Virus record (IMG/VR): IMGVR_UViG_2778261624_000006 | Source of the DNA: a virus | Taxonomy: Duplodnaviria > Heunggongvirae > Uroviricota > Caudoviricetes | DNA: 35,065 nucleotides | Strand: one strand, 5' to 3' | Part shown: positions 98 to 22,448 of the stretch, in pieces | Layout of the letters: every line of letters begins with the position of its first letter | Position numbering within the stretch: the stretch's first letter is position 1 | Notes under the pieces: model-generated | What the model was told of the DNA's origin: nothing | Seen by the model: the letters and a program-made list of their open reading frames with translations, nothing else | Database searches by the model: none | Translations under genes and position numbers: made by a program

Positions 98-673
98 CTA
101 CGGCAGTGCTGGCCATTCAATATCCTGTGCAGTTGACGTATCAACACGGTTCAGCAACACCCGATACTTTTTCCAGGCTTCCAGCAATGAGGTTTCTTCC
201 TCCGTTGCGATTTCCAGATCTACAGCATCCTGAAGTGGCGCAATATGCTCACTGGCTACCTGCATCAGGCTGTTTTTTGTTTCTTCCGCCTCTCGGATCC
301 GGAACAGTTTTTCTGCTTCTGCATCTTTCACCCAGGCTGTGCCGTTCCACTTCTGAAACTCCCCTTCCGGCGATAACCAGGTAACATTTTCCGGTAACGG
401 ACCGAGTTCAGAAATAAATAACGCGTCCCCTGACGCTACGTCATAAACCGTTTTACCCCGATGGTCTTCAACGAGATGCCACGATGCCTTATCACTGTTG
501 AAAACAGCCACAAAGCCAGCAGGAATATCTGGTGGTGCAATATCGGTACTGTTTGCTGGCAGACCTGTATGAGGCGGAATATATGCGTCACCTTCACCAA
601 TAAATTCATTAGTTCCGGCCAGCAGATTATAAATTTTTATGGTCCGTGGTTGTTCACTCATTCTGAATGCCAT
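98..673 (-). CDS. tfa: tail fiber assembly protein (Tfa)
   Basis: 191-aa ORF immediately downstream of and overlapping the side tail fiber gene; sequence recalled as lambdoid Tfa; stop TAG at 98-100. Confidence 0.85.
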
Positions 674-3639
674 TATGCAAGCCTCACAATATAGTTAAAT
701 GCGATGTTTTTGACGGTGTTTTCCGCGTTACCAGCAGCGTTAACGGTGATGGTGTGTCCATGTGAACCAATCGCAACGGAGTGCGTATGAGCACCAATAC
801 CGACAGTATGCGCGTGTGCACCTGCAGATGCTGCTGTGCCGGACAGTGAATGGCTATGATTACCATCTGTACTGGTATTCGCTAACCACCCCGTAGACAT
901 ACCTACTGAGCCTTGTACACCCCAGGTATTTTGACCTGAGCTTGTATAACCATATTGATAAGTATCTTTAAAAACACTGGGGTTAAATCGACGGCCATCT
1001 CTATGGCTGTGATTACCAGCTGCATTCGTGCTGCCACTTAAACTATGGGTATGCGCACCAGTGTTATTCGTGGATTTAGTGCCGTAATCAAACGACGATG
1101 TGGTTTTCGTCCCCAAATCCGTACTGGATGCGCTGGCGCTGTGGGTATGCGATTTAATGCCGTCCTGTTCCTGAGACAATACGGCCCGACCACTGGCAGG
1201 TTTGCCCTTAATCGTCCAGCCACGCATATCAGGGATCACGCCTGACGGATAAGCGGCTGCAAGTTTCGGGTATGCAGATTTGTCAAAAGTCTGCCCCTGC
1301 ATCAGGGCATAGCCAGACGGAACGGTATCTGATGGCCACGGGATTGGTGCGCCAGGCGGATAAAACTGCTCTGATGGCGTATAGAGTGAATAAACTGTAC
1401 CGTCCGTTAACCCTTCCGGCTTATTAGCAGAATATGCTGGTGACGTATGAATCGTCACGCTGGCATTACTGGTATAATCCCATTGAATATTTACACCAGT
1501 CGCATAATTTCCGATTGCAACGTAAATATCGTAAGTATCACCAGATGTATTGACCCAGGCAAAATTTGTAAACCCTGTCGATGTGCGCTGCCATAAAGCA
1601 CCAGTAATCCCCTTCGGATTACCATTACCTGCACGTAAAACAAGTTCAGATATACCTGCCTGTTGAGGTGACCCCACGTTAAATCCAGCGCCACCAATCA
1701 ACGTAATTGAAACAACAGAACTCGCCTGTGGCATGGTTACCGTTGCTAATTTGAACCAACCAGCACCACCGCTGAATGACATTGTTGTTGAGTTAAGCGT
1801 ACCAATATCTTTCGGCGTCAGTGTTATATCCGCTGAAAGCGCCTTACCATTCACCTTACGGGCAGAAGGTACCCGACCATTCGCATTGTCATTAGCTGCT
1901 TTCACTGCTTTCGGTGTCGCAGCAAGCGTTTCAGATGTGCTGTTGGTTGCACTACTGAGCTGGACAATTCCTTTTTGTGCTGTCGTAGCGTCCTGTGCGG
2001 TGTATTTCCCGTTAGCCAGGTCATACGCGGCCTTAACGGCTTTTGGCGTTGCCGCCTGTGACTCGGAAGTGCTGTTAGTCGCACTGCTGAGCTGAACTAT
2101 CCCTTTCTGTGCTGTCGTTGCATCCTGTGCGGTGTATTTCCCGTTAGCCAGGTCATACGCGGCCTTAACGGCTTTTGGCGTTGCCGCCTGTGACTCGGAA
2201 GTGCTGTTGGTCGCACTGCTGAGCTGTACTATCCCCTTTTTCGTCGTGCTCGCATCCTCAAGCGCCACGGCGGATGCAATATCCTCTGCCCGTTTTGCTG
2301 CTGTCTCGGCGCGCGTTGCCGCGGATTCCGCCGTACTTTTGCTCTGTGCTGCCGCTGCCGCACTGCCAGCAGCCTCTGTCGCCTTCGTGGATGCCGTCGT
2401 GGCGCTGCCCCTCGCTGCTGACGCCTGTCTGGTCGCCTCATCTTTTGAAGCAGACGCAGATGATGCCGATGACGCCGCCGAACTGGCGGACGATGCGGCA
2501 GCCGTTTTTGAGGATTCTGCGCTGGTTTCCGACGCTTTCGCGTTCGTTTCGGATGTCTTCGCTGCGGAAGCAGACCTCGCTGCTGCGCTGGCCTGTTCAG
2601 TGGCTTCGCCAGCCTTCGTTGTGGCTGTTGAAGCGGATGATGCGGCGCTTTCTGCCGATTTTCCGGCGGCGGTGGCACTGACTGCTGCCTCCTCTGCCTT
2701 AATGGACGCCTCACGGGCCGATGATGCAGCTGCTGTCTCAGAGTCTGCCGCAGCTGAGGCGCTCTGTTCCGCTGCCGTTTCAGAAGACCTGGCATTCGTC
2801 TCGGACGTTTTTGCCGCCTTCACGGAATTTCCTGCCGCCGTTGCCGAGGAGGCTGCACTGCTGGCGCTTGTGGAGGCGTTCGTTTCTGATGATTTTGCCG
2901 CCTCTTTGGAGGCCGCCGCATCTCTGGCTGAAGTGGCGGCTTCTGACGCTTTCGTCGTCGCAGTGGATGCAGAAGTGGCTGCTGATTTTTGTGACGCTGC
3001 AGCATTCGTTTCTGACGTTTTCGCCGCACCGGCACTGGTGGCCGCCGCGCTTTTTGAGGACTCTGCAGCGGCAGCACTTTTTGATGCTTCAGTGGCCTTT
3101 GTTGATGCCGTTCCTGCGCTGGAAGACGCCTCCTGAGCCGAAGTCGCGGCCTGTCCGGCTGACGTGCTGGCTGCACGCGCTGAGCCTGCAGCATCAGTCG
3201 CATGGGTTGCCGCCTCACGGGCAGATGTGCCGGCATCACTGGCTGACTTCTTCGCGGCTGCCGTGTTCTGTGCCACCGCGGACGCGTTACGCGTCACCTC
3301 TTCCACCATCAGTTCAAAACGGCGCAGAGCCTCCGGACGGGCATCATCCTCCGTCATGGCACCGAGAAAATCATTCAGCGTACCGGGTCGGGAATCTTCA
3401 TACACGGTGATGGTCCCGGCATGTGACGGCGGGAATCCTTCCACCAACAGAATAACGCTGTACTGACCGTACTCAACGTCCATGCTGTAACGCCCGGCTT
3501 CATCCGGATTTTCTGAGGCCAGCGTGTTCACCACCACCGTGGTGCTGTTACGTTTTGCTTTCAGCTGGATTGTGCAGTTCTGTACCGGTTTTCCTGTGCC
3601 GTCTTTCAGTACACCTGAAATCTTTACTGCCATATTCAC
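673..3639 (-). CDS. stf: side tail fiber protein (Stf), 988 aa, with long Ala/Ser/Thr-rich region, three tandem 45-aa repeats and His-rich HxH motifs near the C-terminus
   Basis: Single long ORF after lom in the lambda gene order; conserved N-terminus; repeat unit [44 protein letters not shown] seen three times; GAHTHS, GNHSHS and GAHAHT motifs. Confidence 0.85.
1837..2241. repeat. three tandem ~135-bp direct repeats inside stf (two near-identical copies ~1972-2106 and ~2107-2241, one diverged copy ~1837-1971)
   Basis: Direct reading of the DNA: the same ~135-bp string recurs back to back; encodes the 45-aa fiber repeat. Confidence 0.8.
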
Positions 3640-4367: not shown

Positions 4368-7300
4368 TCAACGAATACTGATGCCGGAAGACGCTTTTTT
4401 GGTCACAATCACCGTACAGTCGGTGATATTGCCTGCCCCCTGATTGCCTTTCTGGAAAATCTTAAACTCCAGAGTGACGCTACCACCACCACTAGGCATA
4501 TCAATAACTGCACTGTAATTTCCGCTCCCCGGATCGTCATACGCTATACCGTTAAAAATAATGGGCGGAATAATAATCTGGCGGTCAAAGTTATGATCAT
4601 CGCTGATGGTGACTGTAACCGTACCGTTTGGTGTTTCCGTGTTACCCCACGTACCGACTTTTTTCGGGAAGGCTTTTGATACAGCTTTAACGAAATCCCC
4701 TCTGACCAGGGTCGCCTCCAGCATGCCCTTAATCGTACAGTTCTGGTTAATCGTGACATTGTTGAGCGTTCCTGAGTTCGCATTCACACTACCACTGATA
4801 TCCGCATTTTTAGCGGTCAGCTTTCCGTCTGATGTCAGGGAAAATACCGGAGGACTGCCACCGCTGGTAATGGCGGGGGCTGTCAGGCGCTTCAGGAACA
4901 CGTCGTTCATGAATATCTGGTTGCCCTGCGCCACAAACATCGGCGTTTCATTCCCGTTTGCCGGGTCAATAAACGCGATACGGTTAGCGGCAACCAGAAA
5001 CTGGCTCAGTTTGCCTTCCTCCGTGTCCTCCATGCTGAGGCCAATACCCGCGACATAATGTTTGCCGTCTTTGGTCTGCTCAATTTTGACGCCCCACATG
5101 GCATTCCATTTATCGTTAGCGTCCTGCCACTCTTTCGAAAACTCATCCAGTCTGCTGGCGTTATCCTCCGTCAGATCAACTTTTTCCAGCAGCTCCTTGC
5201 CGAGATGGGATTCGGTTATCTTGCCTTTGAAAAAATCCAGGTAACCTTCCGCATCATCGCTCGCCCGACCGACGGCCTCCACGAATGCCGATTTGCCAAC
5301 GGTGTTCACACTGCGGATATAAAAGTAATAATCATGGCCCGGTTTGATATTGATACTGGCGGCTATCCAGTACAGCGCCGTACCAAGATAGCGGGCTGTG
5401 GTTTCTACCTGCCTGATATCGGTAATCCGCGTTTCCGAGAACCAGAACTCAAACTGTACCGTCGGGTCATAAACGGCAAGATGCGGCGTGGCGGTTATCT
5501 GAAAATAGCCCGGCGTCAGCTCAATCCGCGACGGCACTGCAGGTGCGGCAATCCGGAACGATACCGATGCCGGATCGCCCTGCTGCCCCCGGGCATTTAC
5601 CGCCCGGACTGTCAGCCTGTAGTTCCCCAGCGCCAGTTGCGTGAAGCGGTATGTGGTTTCCGCCGTCCGGGCTGTGCTGACCAGCCGCTCACTGCCGTCA
5701 TCCGCTGCCACGGTCAGGCGAAGCATGAAACTCACGCCCTTCACCACCTTCGGCGTATCCCAGCGAGCCAGTACCTGATACTCCCCGCTGTCTGCGGTAA
5801 CTTCGGCAGTCAGGTGCTGCACTGCTGGCGGCGTGACACCATTCACCGTGCCGCTCTGGTCGCCGTCAAAGTGCGCCCCGTTATCCACGATGGCTTCTTT
5901 TTCCGGTACATGCTGCACGGCGGTGATGGCATACGTGCCGTCGTCGTTCTCACGGATACTCACGCAGCGGAACAGGCGCTGGCGCAGCGTCGGCAGCTTC
6001 AGCCCCCACACGCTGTATCCGGCAACGCCGTCAGGAACACGGCTCACTTTTACCTTCACGCCGTCGGTGACGGACTGGACCTCCACGCTGACCGGATTGC
6101 CACTTCCGTCAACCAGGCTTATCAGCGTGGTACCGGAGGATGGCAGCGTGATTTCACGGTCGAGCGTCAGCGTCCGGATCTGGCTGTTTACCGCCAGCAC
6201 GCGCCCGCCGATGCTGATACCGGCATAGTCATCATCACAGATTTCAATGACATCGCCCGGCACATGGCGAAGCCCTTCTGCGCCCACGCTGAAGTCCACG
6301 GTCTGCGTTTCCAGCAGCTCCGTTTTAATCAGCCACAGCCCGGTTCGGTGTGCCTGCCCCCGGCTGGTACAGCCAAAGGCATCCATCTTCGTGACATTAC
6401 GACCGTAACGGGCAATGGCCTGCGTGTCCTCCACAAGCTCTGTTGCCGTTTCCCAGCCGTTATCCGGGTCAATCCAGTTCACCTCAACGGCATTATGGCG
6501 GTCCTTCAGGGCGCTGAAACTGTAGCGGAACGGCGCGCCATCATCCAGCATCACCACATTACTGCGGTTATAGGTCCACACCTTATCCGACGGCCGGTCC
6601 TGCACGAACGTCAGCGTCTGCCCGTTCCATACCGGCATACAGCGCATCGCCGAGCAGAAATCACTGAGCACATCCCACGCCTTACGCTGTGTGGTCAGGT
6701 ACGCATTACAGGTGATGCGCGGCTCCGTACCGCCAAAACCGTCCGGCACCGACTGGTCGCAGTACTGGCCGATGACATACAGCGCCCATTTATCCACATC
6801 TGCCGCACCAAGACGTTTCCCCATGCCGTAGCGCGGGTGGGTCAGCATATCCCACAGACACCAGGCCATGTTGTTGCTGTATGCCGGTTTTAACGTTCCG
6901 TCCCAGATACCGCTGTATTGCCGCGTCTGCGGGTTATAGTTCGACGGCACCTGCAGAATGCGCCCGCGAAGATGATAATTACGGCTCACCTGCTGGCTGC
7001 CGAACTGCTCCGAATCCACCTGTACGCCGACCAGTGCCGTATTCGGGTAGCACTGTTTCACATCGATGATTTCGGTGTATGACGACCAGAGCGTTTTGTT
7101 CTGCAGCTGGTCTGTGGTGCTGTCCGGCGTCATCCTGCGCATCCGTATATTGAACGGGCGCGGCGGCAGGTTACCCACCACCACCGAGGCCAGATACTGC
7201 GAGGTGGTTTTGCCCTTAATGGTGATGTCTTTTTCCGTCACCCAGCCACCATTACGCTGTATCTGAACCAGCAGGCGAACTTCCGACGGATTCCGGTCCC

Positions 7301-7682
7301 CCTTTGAGGTGGTTTCCACCAGTGCCTGCACACCGAAGGTAAAGCGCAGTCGGTCAATGTTTGCCGACGTGATGGTCCGGGTGATCGGCGTGTCGTATTT
7401 CACTTCCGTACCCAGCACCGTCTCGGAGCCGGAGGATTCAAATCCCTCCGGCGGTGTCTGCTCCTGCTCACCGGCCCGGAACACCACCGTGACGCCGGAG
7501 ATGTTGGTATTCCCCTCACTGTCCAGCACTGGCGTACTGTTCAGCAGCACGCTTTTTAATCCATCCACCGGACCTTCAACCGGCCCTTCGCTGATGGCAT
7601 CGATCACACTCAGCAACTGCGTGGACTTCAGGTTGTCCTTCGTTTCGCGCGGAGTATGCCCCTTACTGCTGCCTTTACCCAT
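4368..7682 (-). CDS. J: tail tip host specificity protein J (central tail fiber), 1104 aa; C-terminal region differs from lambda J
   Basis: N-terminal ~950 aa recalled as near-identical to lambda J; ATG at 7682; the last ~150 aa do not match my recollection of lambda J and the protein is 28 aa shorter. Confidence 0.95.
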
Positions 7683-7742: not shown

Positions 7743-8414
7743 TCAACGACCAATCACCACAACCTGACCACCGTCCCCTTCGTCTGCCGTGCTGATCTCC
7801 TGAGAGACCACCCGCGACCCCACGCGCATTTCACCGTACAGAACGGGCAGAACATTGCCCTGGGCAACCATGTTATCCAGTGAGGAGAAATAGGTGTTCT
7901 GCTTACCGTTATCCGTTGTCTGTGTACGGGGAGTTCTGGCTTTCGGTGCCAGCATCTGCGCCACACCACCGAGCACCATACTGGCACCGAGAGAAAACAG
8001 GATGCCGGTCATACCACCGGCCCCAATGGCTGCCCCCCATGCTGCAAGGGTGGCTCCGGCGGTAAAGAATGATCCGGCAATGGCGGCAGCCCCCAGGACA
8101 ATCTGGAATACGCCACCTGACTTGGCCCCGGCGACTCTGGGAACAATATGAATCACAGCGCCATCAGGCAGAGTCTCATGTAACTGAGCCGTTAACCCGG
8201 ACGTGCTGACGTCCCGCCCGGCAATCCGTACCTGATACCAGCCGTCGCTCAGTTTCTGACGAAACGCCGGGAGCTGTGTGGCCAGTGCCCGGATGGCTTC
8301 AGCCCCCGTTTTCACACGAAGGTCGATGCGGCGACCAAATCGTTGTAAATCCCCGTAAAGGCAGATGCGCGCCATGCCCGGTGACGCCAGAGGGAGTGTG
8401 TGCGTCGCTGCCAT
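7743..8414 (-). CDS. I: tail tip assembly protein I
   Basis: 223 aa, same length and position as lambda I; overlaps the K 3' end by ~100 bp as in lambda. Confidence 0.9.
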   Translation of the reverse strand: MAATHTLPLASPGMARICLYGDLQRFGRRIDLRVKTGAEAIRALATQLPAFRQKLSDGWYQVRIAGRDVSTSGLTAQLHETLPDGAVIHIVPRVAGAKSGGVFQIVLGAAAIAGSFFTAGATLAAWGAAIGAGGMTGILFSLGASMVLGGVAQMLAPKARTPRTQTTDNGKQNTYFSSLDNMVAQGNVLPVLYGEMRVGSRVVSQEISTADEGDGGQVVVIGR

Positions 8415-9055
8415 TTGTCGGTGTACCTCTCTCGTTTGCTCAGTTGTTCAGGAATATGGTGCAGCAGCTCGCCGTCGCCGCAGTAAATTGCGGCGTGATT
8501 CGGCACCGATGAACCAAAACAGCACAGCAGCACATCGCCCGGCTGTGCCGCTGACAACGGCACCTGATACAGCCCCGTCGCCTCCAGATTATCCAGATAG
8601 AGATTCTGGCCGTTACGCCACCAGTCATCCTCACGATGAAAGTCCGGCATCTCAATCCCCGCCAGATGATAAGCATCCCGGAACAGTGTGTAACAGTCCG
8701 TCACACCGTGCTCAAAGCGCCGCCCGGTGAGATGCGGCACACAGCGGAACTTATGAATCGTCCCCCGGCAGACCAGCCACCACGGCAAATCACTCTGCAC
8801 CTGCAGCCGCCGGTCGGCCTCACTCAGCCAGGGTAGACCACCGGGGTGGCTGTGGACCAGCGCCACAATCTCACCCTGCATTTCTGCCTGCAGCCAGTCT
8901 TCCGGCGACATACGGAAATACGCCTCCGGCTCACCGGAGATATTCACGCAGGGGAAATATCTTTCCCCCTCCGGCGTGCTTACCACGAAGCCGCACGACT
9001 CCGCTGGCGCACATCGCCGGGCGTGCGCCAGAATCGCTGATTCTGTCTGTGTCAT
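8312..9055 (-). CDS. K: tail tip assembly protein K (MPN/JAMM domain plus NlpC/P60 domain); 247-aa reading, classic 199-aa start would be at 8911
   Basis: JAMM-like motif HSHPGGLPWLSEAD; Cys/His NlpC/P60-type C-terminus; the ORF begins 5 bp after the L stop. Confidence 0.85.
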   Translation of the reverse strand: MTQTESAILAHARRCAPAESCGFVVSTPEGERYFPCVNISGEPEAYFRMSPEDWLQAEMQGEIVALVHSHPGGLPWLSEADRRLQVQSDLPWWLVCRGTIHKFRCVPHLTGRRFEHGVTDCYTLFRDAYHLAGIEMPDFHREDDWWRNGQNLYLDNLEATGLYQVPLSAAQPGDVLLCCFGSSVPNHAAIYCGDGELLHHIPEQLSKRERYTDKWQRRTHSLWRHRAWRASAFTGIYNDLVAASTFV

Positions 9056-9060
9056 GGGAT

Positions 9061-9759
9061 TTACTGCGAAAGTTTGTTAATGGAAAGGAAGCCGCCAAAG
9101 TTGCCGACGTTATTGCGGAACTTACAACCGCTCAGGCATTTGCTGCATTTATCCTTCGTGATATCGGACGTTGGCTGGTCATATTCATCCGCGACAGCCG
9201 GACCGCTATAACCGCACTCGTCACCGCGATAGGTCCAGGTGCAGGTGTTGGCCAGCATGATACGTCCCGGAAAAACAGCGCCATCCGTTTCCGTCGGCGT
9301 GGACAGTACAAAGGAGGCACTCACCGCGCTCAGTTCGCTGCACTGCTCAATGCGCCAGCGGCTGATCACCTCCTGCTCCGGATCGGCGTAACTGTTTCCG
9401 TTGACGAAGTTCACCGCATCCAGAAAACGGGCGTAAACCTTACGCCGGACCACCGTTCCGCCGACCAGACTCTGCATATCTTCCGCCATCCCGGTGACCA
9501 TACCGTACAGGTTAGAAACCGTCAGCGTGGGGCGCGTACTGGTGCCTTTGCCATTCAGTTCAAAACCGCTCCCCTGAATGGGATACGGCTGATACTGTCG
9601 CCCCTGCCAGGTGACCGGCTCACCTTTTTCGTTCTGCTCATTACAGAAAAAATAACGTTCTCCACCGACCTCTGTCAGGTCGATTTCCCAGAGCACCACG
9701 CTGGCCGACTGCTCCGCACGGGTGCATTCATTCAGTGTTTCCTGCCGGATATCCTGCAT
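9061..9759 (-). CDS. L: tail tip protein L
   Basis: 232 aa, length and order as lambda L. Confidence 0.9.
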   Translation of the reverse strand: MQDIRQETLNECTRAEQSASVVLWEIDLTEVGGERYFFCNEQNEKGEPVTWQGRQYQPYPIQGSGFELNGKGTSTRPTLTVSNLYGMVTGMAEDMQSLVGGTVVRRKVYARFLDAVNFVNGNSYADPEQEVISRWRIEQCSELSAVSASFVLSTPTETDGAVFPGRIMLANTCTWTYRGDECGYSGPAVADEYDQPTSDITKDKCSKCLSGCKFRNNVGNFGGFLSINKLSQ

Positions 9760-13492: not shown

Positions 13493-14233
13493 TTAACTGG
13501 CGGTGACGGTAATTTCTGCAACCGCAGCAAACTCACCATTACCGGATACAACCGGAATGTTGACCTTGCCTGCAGCAACGCCGTTCACGGTGATGGTCAT
13601 ACCACTGACCGACACGGTGGCTTTTGTTTTATCCGCAGACACCGCACGAAAGCTCTTGTCGGTTACGCCCTCCGGCTGGAAGGCCACGGTCAGCGTGGTG
13701 CTCTGCCCTTTCACCACCGAGGTGCTGGCAGGCGTCACGGTCATGCCGGTTGCCGCTGTTACCGTGCTGCGATCTTCTGCCATCGACGGACGTCCCACAT
13801 TGGTGACTTTCACCGTGCGGGTGATCACTTCCTTCGCCGTCACCGCCTTACCGATACTGCTGACCCAGCCACGGAACACATCGACCGTGCCGTTCGGGAA
13901 GCGGATTTTATAGGCACGGGTATCGCCTTCATTAAACCACGCCAGCAGCGCCTGCTGCCCCTGCTCTCCGGGCATCCACGCCAGCGTGAAGCTGGTATCT
14001 CCGGCAGATTTCTGCCCCTGCCCGGTCGCAGTCCAGTCTGCATCTTCATCATCGAGATAGCTGTCGTCATAGGACTCAGCGGTCAGTTCGCCGGGCGTCA
14101 GGTCTTTAACTTTTGCCAGACGCGACCAGTCAACGTCTGAAAGCGGATTCGCATAAGGGTCACCGCTCCCCTTATAAACCCACAGGGTGGTCCCGGCACC
14201 TTTCACCGGCATTGTAGGATTTGGTACAGGCAT
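13493..14233 (-). CDS. V: major tail tube protein V (246-aa reading; ORF track extends to 14263)
   Basis: Sequence from [16 protein letters not shown] matches lambda V as recalled; C-terminal Ig-like domain. Confidence 0.9.
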
Positions 14234-14240
14234 AGCGTCC

Positions 14241-14636
14241 TCACATTTCATAGGTAATGACATAAGTCAGATCGGCTGAACTCCACAGGCCCGCATCATC
14301 GTCGCGCCGGTAGTCATAGCCGCTGGCCACCATACTGGTGATCAAATCTGACAGTGCCGGGATATCGCTCATCACCGGATAAATCCGGGACTCCATCCAC
14401 GCATCCAGCTCTGAATCCGGCACCTGAGCAGGCAGGAAAACTTCGATATGCAGCTCCGCCTGCCAGGTATCGCTGTCCAGCTCTTCGCCCGTGTATTCAG
14501 CGCCGGTGAGATAAACGGCAACTGCCGGAAAATCCGCCTCATCAAAAACAGCGGGGCGACCATCAAAAAACGTCGCCCCGGTGTCATGCTTCTCCAGTGC
14601 ATCCAGTACGGCTGCACGGAGTTCAGTATGTTTCAT
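14241..14636 (-). CDS. U: tail tube terminator protein U
   Basis: 131 aa, matches lambda U in length and order. Confidence 0.9.

Positions 14637-18767: not shown

Positions 18768-22448
<3,681 letters not shown>

Follow-up and report, generated by a model that had tools for sequence, protein, structure and literature searches.

[quoted passage not shown] K is needed at the tip-initiator stage of tail assembly (PMC3224144), is absent from lambda virions by mass spectrometry (PMC10721106) and is resolved in no tail structure (PMC12617516). The 247-residue form of the protein is standard in current prophage annotation. The records J02459 and NC_001416 (with NP_040598), together with the entries copied from them, still give a K of 199 residues that has neither Glu19 nor the core strands of the JAMM domain, and the figure of ‘199 residues’ for K persists in recent papers on structure and bioinformatics (PMC7291167). 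The practical value of the analysis described here lies in curation, that is, in correcting the reference annotation, and its discovery content is small.

As the object of study we use a stretch of 35,065 nucleotides from a virus of the Caudoviricetes (IMG/VR record IMGVR_UViG_2778261624_000006), called the window below; all positions refer to it unless lambda coordinates are named. The list of open reading frames contains a minus-strand frame that begins with ATG and consists of 247 codons followed by TGA, for a product of 247 aa and 28.3 kDa. We read this frame as the complete lambda-type K gene, encoding a JAMM domain followed by an NlpC/P60 domain, with the 199-residue form explained by a G missing from the reference and processing of gpI as the proposed role; our probability for this reading is about 0.85. 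The features on which it depends are collected in Table 1.

Table 1. Features of the K locus, listed from gene L to gene I (coordinates of the window)
Feature	Position	Strand	Basis
Gene L (tail-tip hub protein, 232 aa), next gene upstream of K	9061..9759	-	Pfam Phage_tail_L, 338 bits
L stop TAA and 5-nt spacer ATCCC	9056..9063	-	No Shine-Dalgarno motif
Full-length K gene	8312..9055	-	ORF list; Pfam PF14464 and PF00877; phrog_30; homologue lengths
Codons 1-48, extension missing from the classic 199-aa K	8912..9055	-	dN/dS; pLDDT; distant relatives
JAB/MPN+ (JAMM) domain, residues 3-104	8744..9049	-	Pfam; 2kks_A; Foldseek 5ld9_A
Glu19 codon, predicted catalytic glutamate of the JAMM motif (in PAESCG)	8999..9001	-	Conservation
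GGAGG, Shine-Dalgarno-like, 11 nt upstream of Met49, inside codons Pro43-Glu44-Ala45	8923..8927	-	Duplex energy
G missing from reference lambda, between lambda 14266 and 14267	8921	-	Alignment of the window with NC_001416
Met49 ATG, classic K start (lambda 14276)	8909..8911	-	Alignment with lambda
HSHPGGLPWLSEAD, predicted zinc-ligand motif HxHx7Sx2D, residues 68-81 (His68, His70, Ser78, Asp81)	8813..8854	-	Read from sequence
NlpC/P60 (C40 papain-like) peptidase domain, residues 111-224	8384..8725	-	Pfam PF00877
Candidate NlpC/P60 triad Cys121, His187, His199	8693-8695, 8495-8497, 8459-8461	-	Position in family alignment
103-nt overlap, in different frames, of the last K residues (214-247) with the first I residues (1-34)	8312..8414	-	ORF list
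Gene I, 223 aa: ubiquitin-like N-domain, Gly100-Gly101, hydrophobic helices, plug domain	7743..8414	-	Pfam Lambda_tail_I, residues 14-97, 100 bits

The neighbourhood of the frame is that of a lambda tail cluster, with the gene order L-K-I-J on the minus strand throughout; L and I are identified by Pfam, and J lies at 4368-7682. The stop codon of L (9063-9061) and the ATG of K (9055-9053) are separated by only 5 nt, and in related phages the corresponding spacer measures 4-11 nt. At the other end of the gene, the overlap between K and I is annotated likewise in lambda. The classic start, Met49, lies 48 codons downstream of the first ATG and aligns exactly with its lambda counterpart; the gene model is therefore the one originally predicted, in which the frame was said to extend 48 codons upstream of an internal Met at about 8911 and to begin 5 bp past the L stop. 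Family comparisons also favor the long form: the minor tail protein family phrog_30 matches K over residues 1-247 (E 1.3e-163), and among close homologues, which carry names such as ‘C40 family peptidase’, ‘phage tail protein’ and ‘Mov34/MPN/PAD-1’, a length of 247 aa predominates. Other candidate frames in this part of the window were set aside. Opposite-strand frames at 8365-8730 and 8276-8512 are shadows of a GC-rich gene selected in the K frame, and a 190-aa gpI of the kind annotated in the PhiR series, with a GTG start overlapping the K stop, would cut into the Lambda_tail_I domain.

The textbook K has 199 residues because reference lambda lacks one G just upstream of Met49. In J02459/NC_001416, the 1982 reference, the absence of this nucleotide moves codons 1-45 into another frame; apart from the G, the window differs from reference lambda K by two substitutions, at 8834 and 8507. 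The original prediction that K is longer than its classic annotation is thus borne out by a frame of 247 codons, but the difference is not a mere choice of start, since it goes back to the gap in the reference. A 70-mer without the G occurs exactly in only four phage records (J02459, NC_001416, OR474059 and OR974322), no record among the 3,943 that match in E. coli attains 99% identity to it, and the G is present in all complete E. coli genomes that match as well as in 92 of 94 related loci. The nucleotide is likewise present in the independent lambda derivatives checked, namely lambda-gt10, DE3, imm21, imm434, Lambda_AGU (LC730321), KT232076 and PV340536, the last being a lambda record in which K is annotated as 744 nt. 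For lambda-gt10 in MutaMouse, the change is listed as ‘14266 C>CG’ (PMC6760142).

Most likely, the missing G is a sequencing error in the 1982 reference. The alternative would be a real frameshift in the stock sequenced at that time, from which a 76-aa N-terminal fragment and a 199-aa C-terminal fragment would have been made, with tails still being assembled. At least one frameshift of laboratory lambda, that in stf, is real (PMC10721106), and in reference lambda an ATG at 14133 opens a frame of 76 codons; two further records, OR474059 and OR974322, also share the G-less sequence. These two are, respectively, an UNVERIFIED construct and a ‘lambda’ from a chicken swab that is probably a reference-guided consensus, whereas the G is found in every independently sequenced lambda derivative checked. 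Moreover, lambda-gt10 and Lambda_AGU share a second single-nucleotide difference from the reference, delG138, which is the pattern expected from reference errors. A frameshift in the 1982 stock consequently appears distinctly improbable.

If the upstream codons are part of the gene, they should evolve as coding sequence, and this is what is seen. Across the most divergent comparisons, with the K genes of Stx phages, dN/dS is 0.06-0.08 for codons 1-48 and 0.09-0.11 for codons 49-213, and the variable sites of the extension are concentrated at third positions (10, 4 and 25 at the first, second and third codon positions). In the K frame, the extension evolves under purifying selection. That frame is open over residues 1-247 in 92 of 94 related loci, and both exceptions are the reference lambda sequence. 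For a wider view we used a distant set of 82 cluster representatives (33-58% identity, median length 243 aa), with residue counts taken over 83 sequences. Residues 8-48 are covered in all 82 representatives. Glu19 is kept in 82/83 distant relatives and is invariant in the alignment of closer ones (A1); His68, His70 and Asp81 are kept in all 83 sequences and Ser78 in 79. The candidate residues of the second domain are similarly constant, with Cys121 and His187 each kept in 82/83 and His199 in 83/83.

The extension also decides whether the first domain is whole. With the 247-aa protein as query, the Pfam family Prok-JAB (PF14464) scores 52.3 bits against a cut-off of 25 and aligns over profile positions 3-112 of 114; with the 199-aa protein, the score falls to 23.3 bits, under the cut-off, and only profile positions 63-112 are matched. 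The NLPC_P60 family (PF00877) follows with 49.2 bits (cut-off 23) over its full profile, positions 1-105 of 105. The profile searches therefore agree with the prediction of an MPN/JAMM-like domain completed by the extension and succeeded by an NlpC/P60-type domain, and the predicted metal-binding motif fits the HxHx7Sx2D pattern, with its glutamate upstream as had been proposed. Searching the sequences of the PDB gives a match for the JAB half in 2kks_A, an uncharacterized JAB-like protein (1.3e-5), and marginal matches for the NlpC/P60 half (8idc_E, E 0.12); no solved gpK structure was found by this search. Two more specific NCBIfam models were below threshold, the desampylase family NF041370 (29.8 bits; cut-off 130) and the phage cell-wall peptidase family TIGR02219 (23.9 bits; cut-off 81.9). 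Because its score is under the cut-off, K is not an orthologue of the NCBIfam desampylase; judged by these profile scores, it is a relative of both families and a member of neither. In the literature searched, no data were found on gpK biochemistry, meaning zinc binding and peptidase or isopeptidase activity.

A predicted structure points in the same direction. In the AlphaFold model, residues 1-40 of K form a helix and two core strands with pLDDT 88-93, the extension contributing a helix (residues 3-15) and strands (20-27 and 30-36) to the predicted JAMM fold; AF2 pLDDT is 85-93 across most of residues 1-100. The top Foldseek match is 5ld9_A, P. furiosus JAMM1 (E 8.5e-6, target TM 0.65, rmsd 2.8 A over 109 columns), and the best matches (5ld9, 5lda, Rpn11 and CSN5), which are JAMM enzymes of the deubiquitinase/desampylase kind, have probability 1.00. 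The top 50 matches are all against the JAB half; residues 111-247, the NlpC/P60 half, are modeled with moderate to low confidence (block-mean pLDDT 43-88, pTM 0.60 and an alignment of 16 sequences). An MPN fold for the JAB half is supported by this model, and the suggested fusion of a deubiquitinase-like fold to a peptidase is consistent with the matches to 5ld9, Rpn11 and CSN5 taken together with PF00877. Any gpK cloned, modeled or assayed from the reference sequence would be truncated, probably with a misfolded N-terminal domain, which bears on how the role of K in tail-tip assembly is studied.

Where translation begins is a related question. No Shine-Dalgarno motif is present before ATG 9055, where the duplex energy with the 3' end of 16S rRNA is +0.7 kcal/mol; initiation there is thus probably coupled to termination of L. 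The GGAGG before Met49 gives -9.5 kcal/mol, and the equivalent site was marked as an RBS by the annotators of lambda imm21 (CPT). Even where the long frame is open, the 199-aa start continues to be preferred by some annotators and gene callers. Clusters of 199-aa proteins occur in a large protein collection, and in the one contig examined (L086) the long frame is open in the DNA, so that its 199-aa call is the choice of the gene caller. No N-terminal sequence or mass-spectrometry peptide that fixes the K start was found in the literature, lambda ribosome profiling being outside the coverage of that search.

One might take the classic annotation at face value, with the 199-aa protein from Met49 as the only product and the 48 upstream codons untranslated or incidental. 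It is what J02459/NC_001416 and several copying records state, and it has the Shine-Dalgarno-like motif before Met49 on its side. Against it, purifying selection acts on the upstream codons in the K frame, and without the Glu19 and core strands that these codons encode the first domain is incomplete. The codons are found in all of the distant relatives, in which Met49 is not conserved; the shortness of the reference protein, moreover, comes from a gap of 1 nt and is not evidence of initiation. We regard this reading as scarcely credible, and the most likely translation start of K is ATG 9055.

Starting at ATG 9055 need not mean that a single protein is produced. In-frame pairs of products are known in lambda from C/Nu3 and S107/S105. 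With a strong GGAGG before Met49 and none before ATG 9055, a shorter K product could also be made, and a lambda-like subgroup might contain both a 247-aa protein and a 199-aa one, the latter comprising the NlpC/P60 domain and an incomplete, inactive JAB remnant. Most close lambda-like loci retain both GGAGG and Met49. Among distant relatives, however, position 49 is Met in just 12/83 and Ile in 52/83; replacement by Ile, Leu or Val amounts to 71/83 in this set and 7/16 in closer relatives. An internal start is therefore not a feature of the family. Furthermore, the GGAGG lies within codons of the conserved Glu42-Pro43 region and may follow from the protein sequence alone, its 11-nt spacing exceeds the optimum, and experimental evidence for two K species was not found in the literature. 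Two products are accordingly an unlikely arrangement, and we continue with the 247-aa protein from ATG 9055.

What this protein may do is suggested by its neighbor. Gly100-Gly101 of gpI follow the ubiquitin-like domain, and gpI has been resolved from residue 101 only (PMC11101478), or from residue 135 in another structure. The N-terminus of gpI may simply be flexible. The virion mass-spectrometry supplement lists one gpI peptide (9.87% coverage, no sequence), and is uninformative on removal of the ubiquitin-like domain (PMC10721106). K would take part early in tip assembly, where the order is J, I, L, K, and would not be retained in the virion. Iyer et al. (2006) proposed that it proteolytically processes the neighboring gpI. 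In this mechanism, the JAMM domain, whole in the 247-aa form only, would cleave gpI behind the glycine that ends its ubiquitin-like N-domain, at Gly100-Gly101, and the cut would free the hydrophobic and plug part of gpI found inside the tip, which cryo-EM resolves from residue 101 onward. We offer this step tentatively, and the odds are somewhat against it. If true, it would represent a phage-encoded, E1/E2-independent assembly switch consisting of a ubiquitin-like pro-domain and a dedicated JAMM protease. Such processing was beyond the reach of work with the 199-aa reference protein, which is truncated.

NlpC/P60 enzymes are typically peptidoglycan endopeptidases. By this token, K could chiefly be a cell-wall hydrolase, with its NlpC/P60 domain cutting the peptide stems of peptidoglycan at infection instead of phage proteins during assembly; there is weak similarity to the ‘putative phage cell wall peptidase’ model TIGR02219, and the enzyme by which lambda crosses the peptidoglycan is unidentified (PMC11101478). 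That similarity, though, scores far under the cut-off, and the Pfam scan of K shows no signal peptide or wall-binding domain. K is also required at the tip-initiator stage, and since it was not detected in virions by mass spectrometry and is resolved in no tail structure, it does not reach the cell wall. A chief role in wall hydrolysis is thus very improbable, and processing of gpI remains our preferred, if tentative, proposal for the function of K.

Among known systems, the most similar is lambda gpK itself, of the ‘TAPK’ family found in lambdoid and T1-like siphophages, with 99.6% nucleotide identity over 764 nt; across lambda and lambda-like phages, identity to this K is 99.6-99.9%. The L-K-I-J order, the 103-nt K/I overlap and the JAB plus NlpC/P60 architecture are common to both, and there is no biological difference: the reference record differs only by the two substitutions and by the G, which restores the frame. 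The NlpC/P60 peptidases (MEROPS C40), such as RipC and the phage cell-wall peptidases, share with K the full-length PF00877 match and the conserved Cys-His-His; in contrast to the RipC type, K would be a cytoplasmic, assembly-stage protein that is not in the virion. The prokaryotic and other JAMM/MPN+ peptidases with ubiquitin-like substrates (P. furiosus JAMM1 with SAMP2 in 5ld9/5lda, haloarchaeal desampylase, Rpn11 and CSN5) share the Glu...HxHx7Sx2D signature; the predicted K fold superposes on 5ld9, and K too has a Gly-Gly-ended ubiquitin-like domain, encoded next door in gpI. Unlike JAMM1, Rpn11 and CSN5, K is fused to a second peptidase and has no E1/E2 partner, and the substrate presumed for it, which lies in a phage structural protein, is a linear fusion rather than an isopeptide conjugate.

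In the window, K is a single open frame that runs 48 codons further upstream than the classic 199-residue K and begins 5 bp past the stop of L, as in the original prediction; the spacer is exactly 5 nt (ATCCC). The MPN/JAMM-like motif and upstream Glu ascribed to it can be read directly from the sequence: residues 68-81 are HSHPGGLPWLSEAD, and Glu19 lies within PAESCG. All factual elements of that prediction on K are correct.

Features of the K region (window positions)
Feature	Position	Strand	Details
Gene L (minor tail protein)	9061-9759	minus	upstream of K; Pfam Phage_tail_L, 338 bits
L stop TAA	9063-9061	minus	
K ORF	8312-9055	minus	247 codons, ATG start, TGA stop (ORF list)
K start ATG	9055-9053	minus	
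GGAGG	8923-8927	minus	perfect motif, 11 nt upstream of Met49, inside codons Pro43-Glu44-Ala45
Extra G relative to NC_001416	8921		between lambda 14266 and 14267; 10 nt upstream of classic ATG
Codon 49 ATG (Met49)	8911-8909	minus	base-for-base equivalent of classic lambda K start at 14276 (alignment)
K/I overlap	8312-8414	minus	103 nt, different frames; I downstream of K
gpI Gly100-Gly101	8112-8117	minus	directly after ubiquitin-like domain, AGAKSGG/VFQ

Both proposed domains are found by Pfam above their cut-offs (25 and 23 bits, respectively): Prok-JAB (PF14464) on residues 3-104 with 52.3 bits, and NLPC_P60 (PF00877) on residues 111-224 with 49.2 bits. The extension does complete the JAMM domain, since the long protein covers profile positions 3-112 of 114, whereas the 199-residue form covers only positions 63-112 at 23.3 bits, under the threshold; the NlpC/P60 domain is retained in the short form. 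In an AlphaFold2 model built from an alignment of 16 sequences, residues 1-40, at pLDDT 88-93, contribute one helix (3-15) and two strands (20-27 and 30-36) to the domain core. The best Foldseek match in the PDB is P. furiosus JAMM1 (5ld9; E 8.5e-6, target TM 0.65, rmsd 2.8 A over 109 columns), followed by the complex of JAMM1 with ubiquitin-like SAMP2, then Rpn11 and CSN5. The C-terminal half is modeled at moderate confidence and has no match among the top 50, so its papain-like fold rests on the Pfam match and on conserved Cys121, His187 and His199. The two-domain interpretation is sound.

Several lines of evidence indicate that the extension is coding. The frame is open over residues 1-247 in 92 of 94 related loci, the remaining two both being reference lambda. 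Between the window and Stx-phage K genes, dN/dS (Nei-Gojobori) is 0.06-0.08 over the extension (codons 1-48), compared with 0.09-0.11 over codons 49-213. Among 75 unique alleles, the extension varies at 10/4/25 sites across the three codon positions. Sixteen of its residues (I8, L9, H11, A12, A16, P17, E19, S20, C21, G22, V24, Y33, N38, S40, P43 and F47) are invariant in 16 homologues whose identity reaches as low as 67%. HMMER, run over all 1.84 billion cluster representatives, returns 2,781 relatives (293 with E <= 1e-30), and distant relatives of 230-260 residues (35-50% identity) align from query position ~4-10 to ~226-245. When 82 such distant representatives are aligned with the window protein, residues 8-48 are occupied in all 83 sequences; His68, His70, Asp81 and His199 are conserved in 83, and Glu19, Cys121 and His187 in 82 each. 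Position 49 is Met in 12 and Ile in 52. Taken together, the open frame, selection, occupancy and variable position 49 argue from sequence comparison that the long form is the one maintained by evolution and that initiation at the classic start is not conserved.

The short K can be traced to one base. Within K the window differs from NC_001416 at three places: substitutions at 8834 and 8507, and the extra G. In reference lambda, ATG 14133 opens a 76-codon ORF (MTQTES...GEPEA in the K frame, then out of frame until its stop), and with the frame broken upstream, the annotators of 1982 were obliged to use the next in-frame ATG. The exact G-less 70-mer occurs in only four phage records: J02459, its RefSeq copy NC_001416, OR474059.1 (an UNVERIFIED engineered lambda strain) and OR974322.1 (a 'lambda' assembly obtained from chicken cloacal swabs; its annotation is identical to RefSeq). 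The last two, the sole non-reference records with this version, look reference-derived or spike-in-derived rather than independent isolates. All other lambda and lambda-like records carry the G, including HK630, DE3, lambda imm21, imm434, KT232076, PV340536 and Lambda_AGU, and at 99% identity the G-less version is found in 0 of 3,943 matching records (3,926 complete E. coli genomes). A mutation private to the stock sequenced for the reference is a less likely source of the absence. Over the whole genome, Lambda_AGU (LC730321) shows 15 differences from J02459, delG138 and a G inserted after 14266 among them; an independent deep-sequencing study of MutaMouse classes '137 AG>A' and '14266 C>CG' in its lambda-gt10 transgene as constitutional (PMC6760142). 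That two unrelated derivatives have both single-base indels in common is what reference errors would be expected to produce; this would apply to the missing G in J02459 and, probably, to the extra G at its position 138. A further C is present in Lambda_AGU at 20833, within the side-tail-fibre region.

Annotated K length differs between records. It is 744 nt (247 aa) in lambda PV340536, phage 21, PhiR30_1, PhiR49_2, PhiR5_1 and PhiR55_1, 244 aa in Fels-1, and 199 aa, despite the G, in HK630 and lambda imm21; on one Logan contig (L086) a gene caller chose 199 aa on DNA with the long frame open. The dominant protein clusters are of 247 aa ('C40 family peptidase', 'phage tail protein' or 'Mov34/MPN/PAD-1 family protein'), and '199 residues' is still in recent use (PMC7291167). 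The short choice at loci L003, L005 and L086 is probably due to the GGAGG before Met49 (duplex energy -9.5 kcal/mol). No Shine-Dalgarno motif precedes ATG 9055 (+0.7 kcal/mol), which would be reached via coupling to L termination; the L-K spacer in relatives is 4-11 nt. Internal initiation at Met49 may give a minor product. A literature search turned up no experiment that fixes the N-terminus of gpK.

By prediction, K joins a JAMM zinc protease to a papain-like cysteine peptidase, with the catalytic residues of both intact. The tail initiator is built by J, I, L and K, acting one after another (PMC3224144); gpK is undetected in virions by mass spectrometry (PMC10721106) and is not located in any tail structure (PMC12617516). 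Its action on components of the tip would be transient, with gpI the most plausible target. The Lambda_tail_I domain (Pfam, gpI residues 14-97) was identified by Iyer et al. as a ThiS/MoaD-like ubiquitin fold with a conserved terminal glycine, and they proposed that the JAB domain of K removes this fold (PMC1779556); the cut would fall at Gly100-Gly101. In cryo-EM of the closed tail tip, gpI is resolved only from residue 101 (PMC11101478), and in another study from residue 135. This is compatible with such removal and equally with a flexible N-domain; the single gpI peptide in a virion mass-spectrometry table, its position not given, is too sparse to decide on cleavage. In several GenBank entries of recent date, those of the PhiR series, I starts at a GTG overlapping the K stop (8315-8317); in the resulting 190-residue protein, the ubiquitin-like domain would lack its first strand. 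Among the closer relatives compared (L087, L094 and L086), K-frame synonymous changes are absent from the K/I overlap.

The two-domain finding is real but already known: the lambda K JAMM motif was listed in 2003 (PMC300881), and the JAB plus NlpC/P60 architecture, ubiquitin-like gpI and processing hypothesis were published in 2006 (PMC1779556). The protein is lambda K itself (99.6% nucleotide identity). The useful addition is an explicit reason for the truncated reference K, a curation point rather than a discovery. Elsewhere in the window, the J ORF (4368-7682) encodes 1104 aa versus 1132 in lambda, and after lom the side-tail-fibre ORF (673-3639) is uninterrupted at 988 aa. The J/side-tail-fibre region is ~96% identical to PhiR- and mEp460-type phages rather than to lambda, which makes the window a lambda-like mosaic, phage or prophage, whose stf is intact, and not laboratory lambda.
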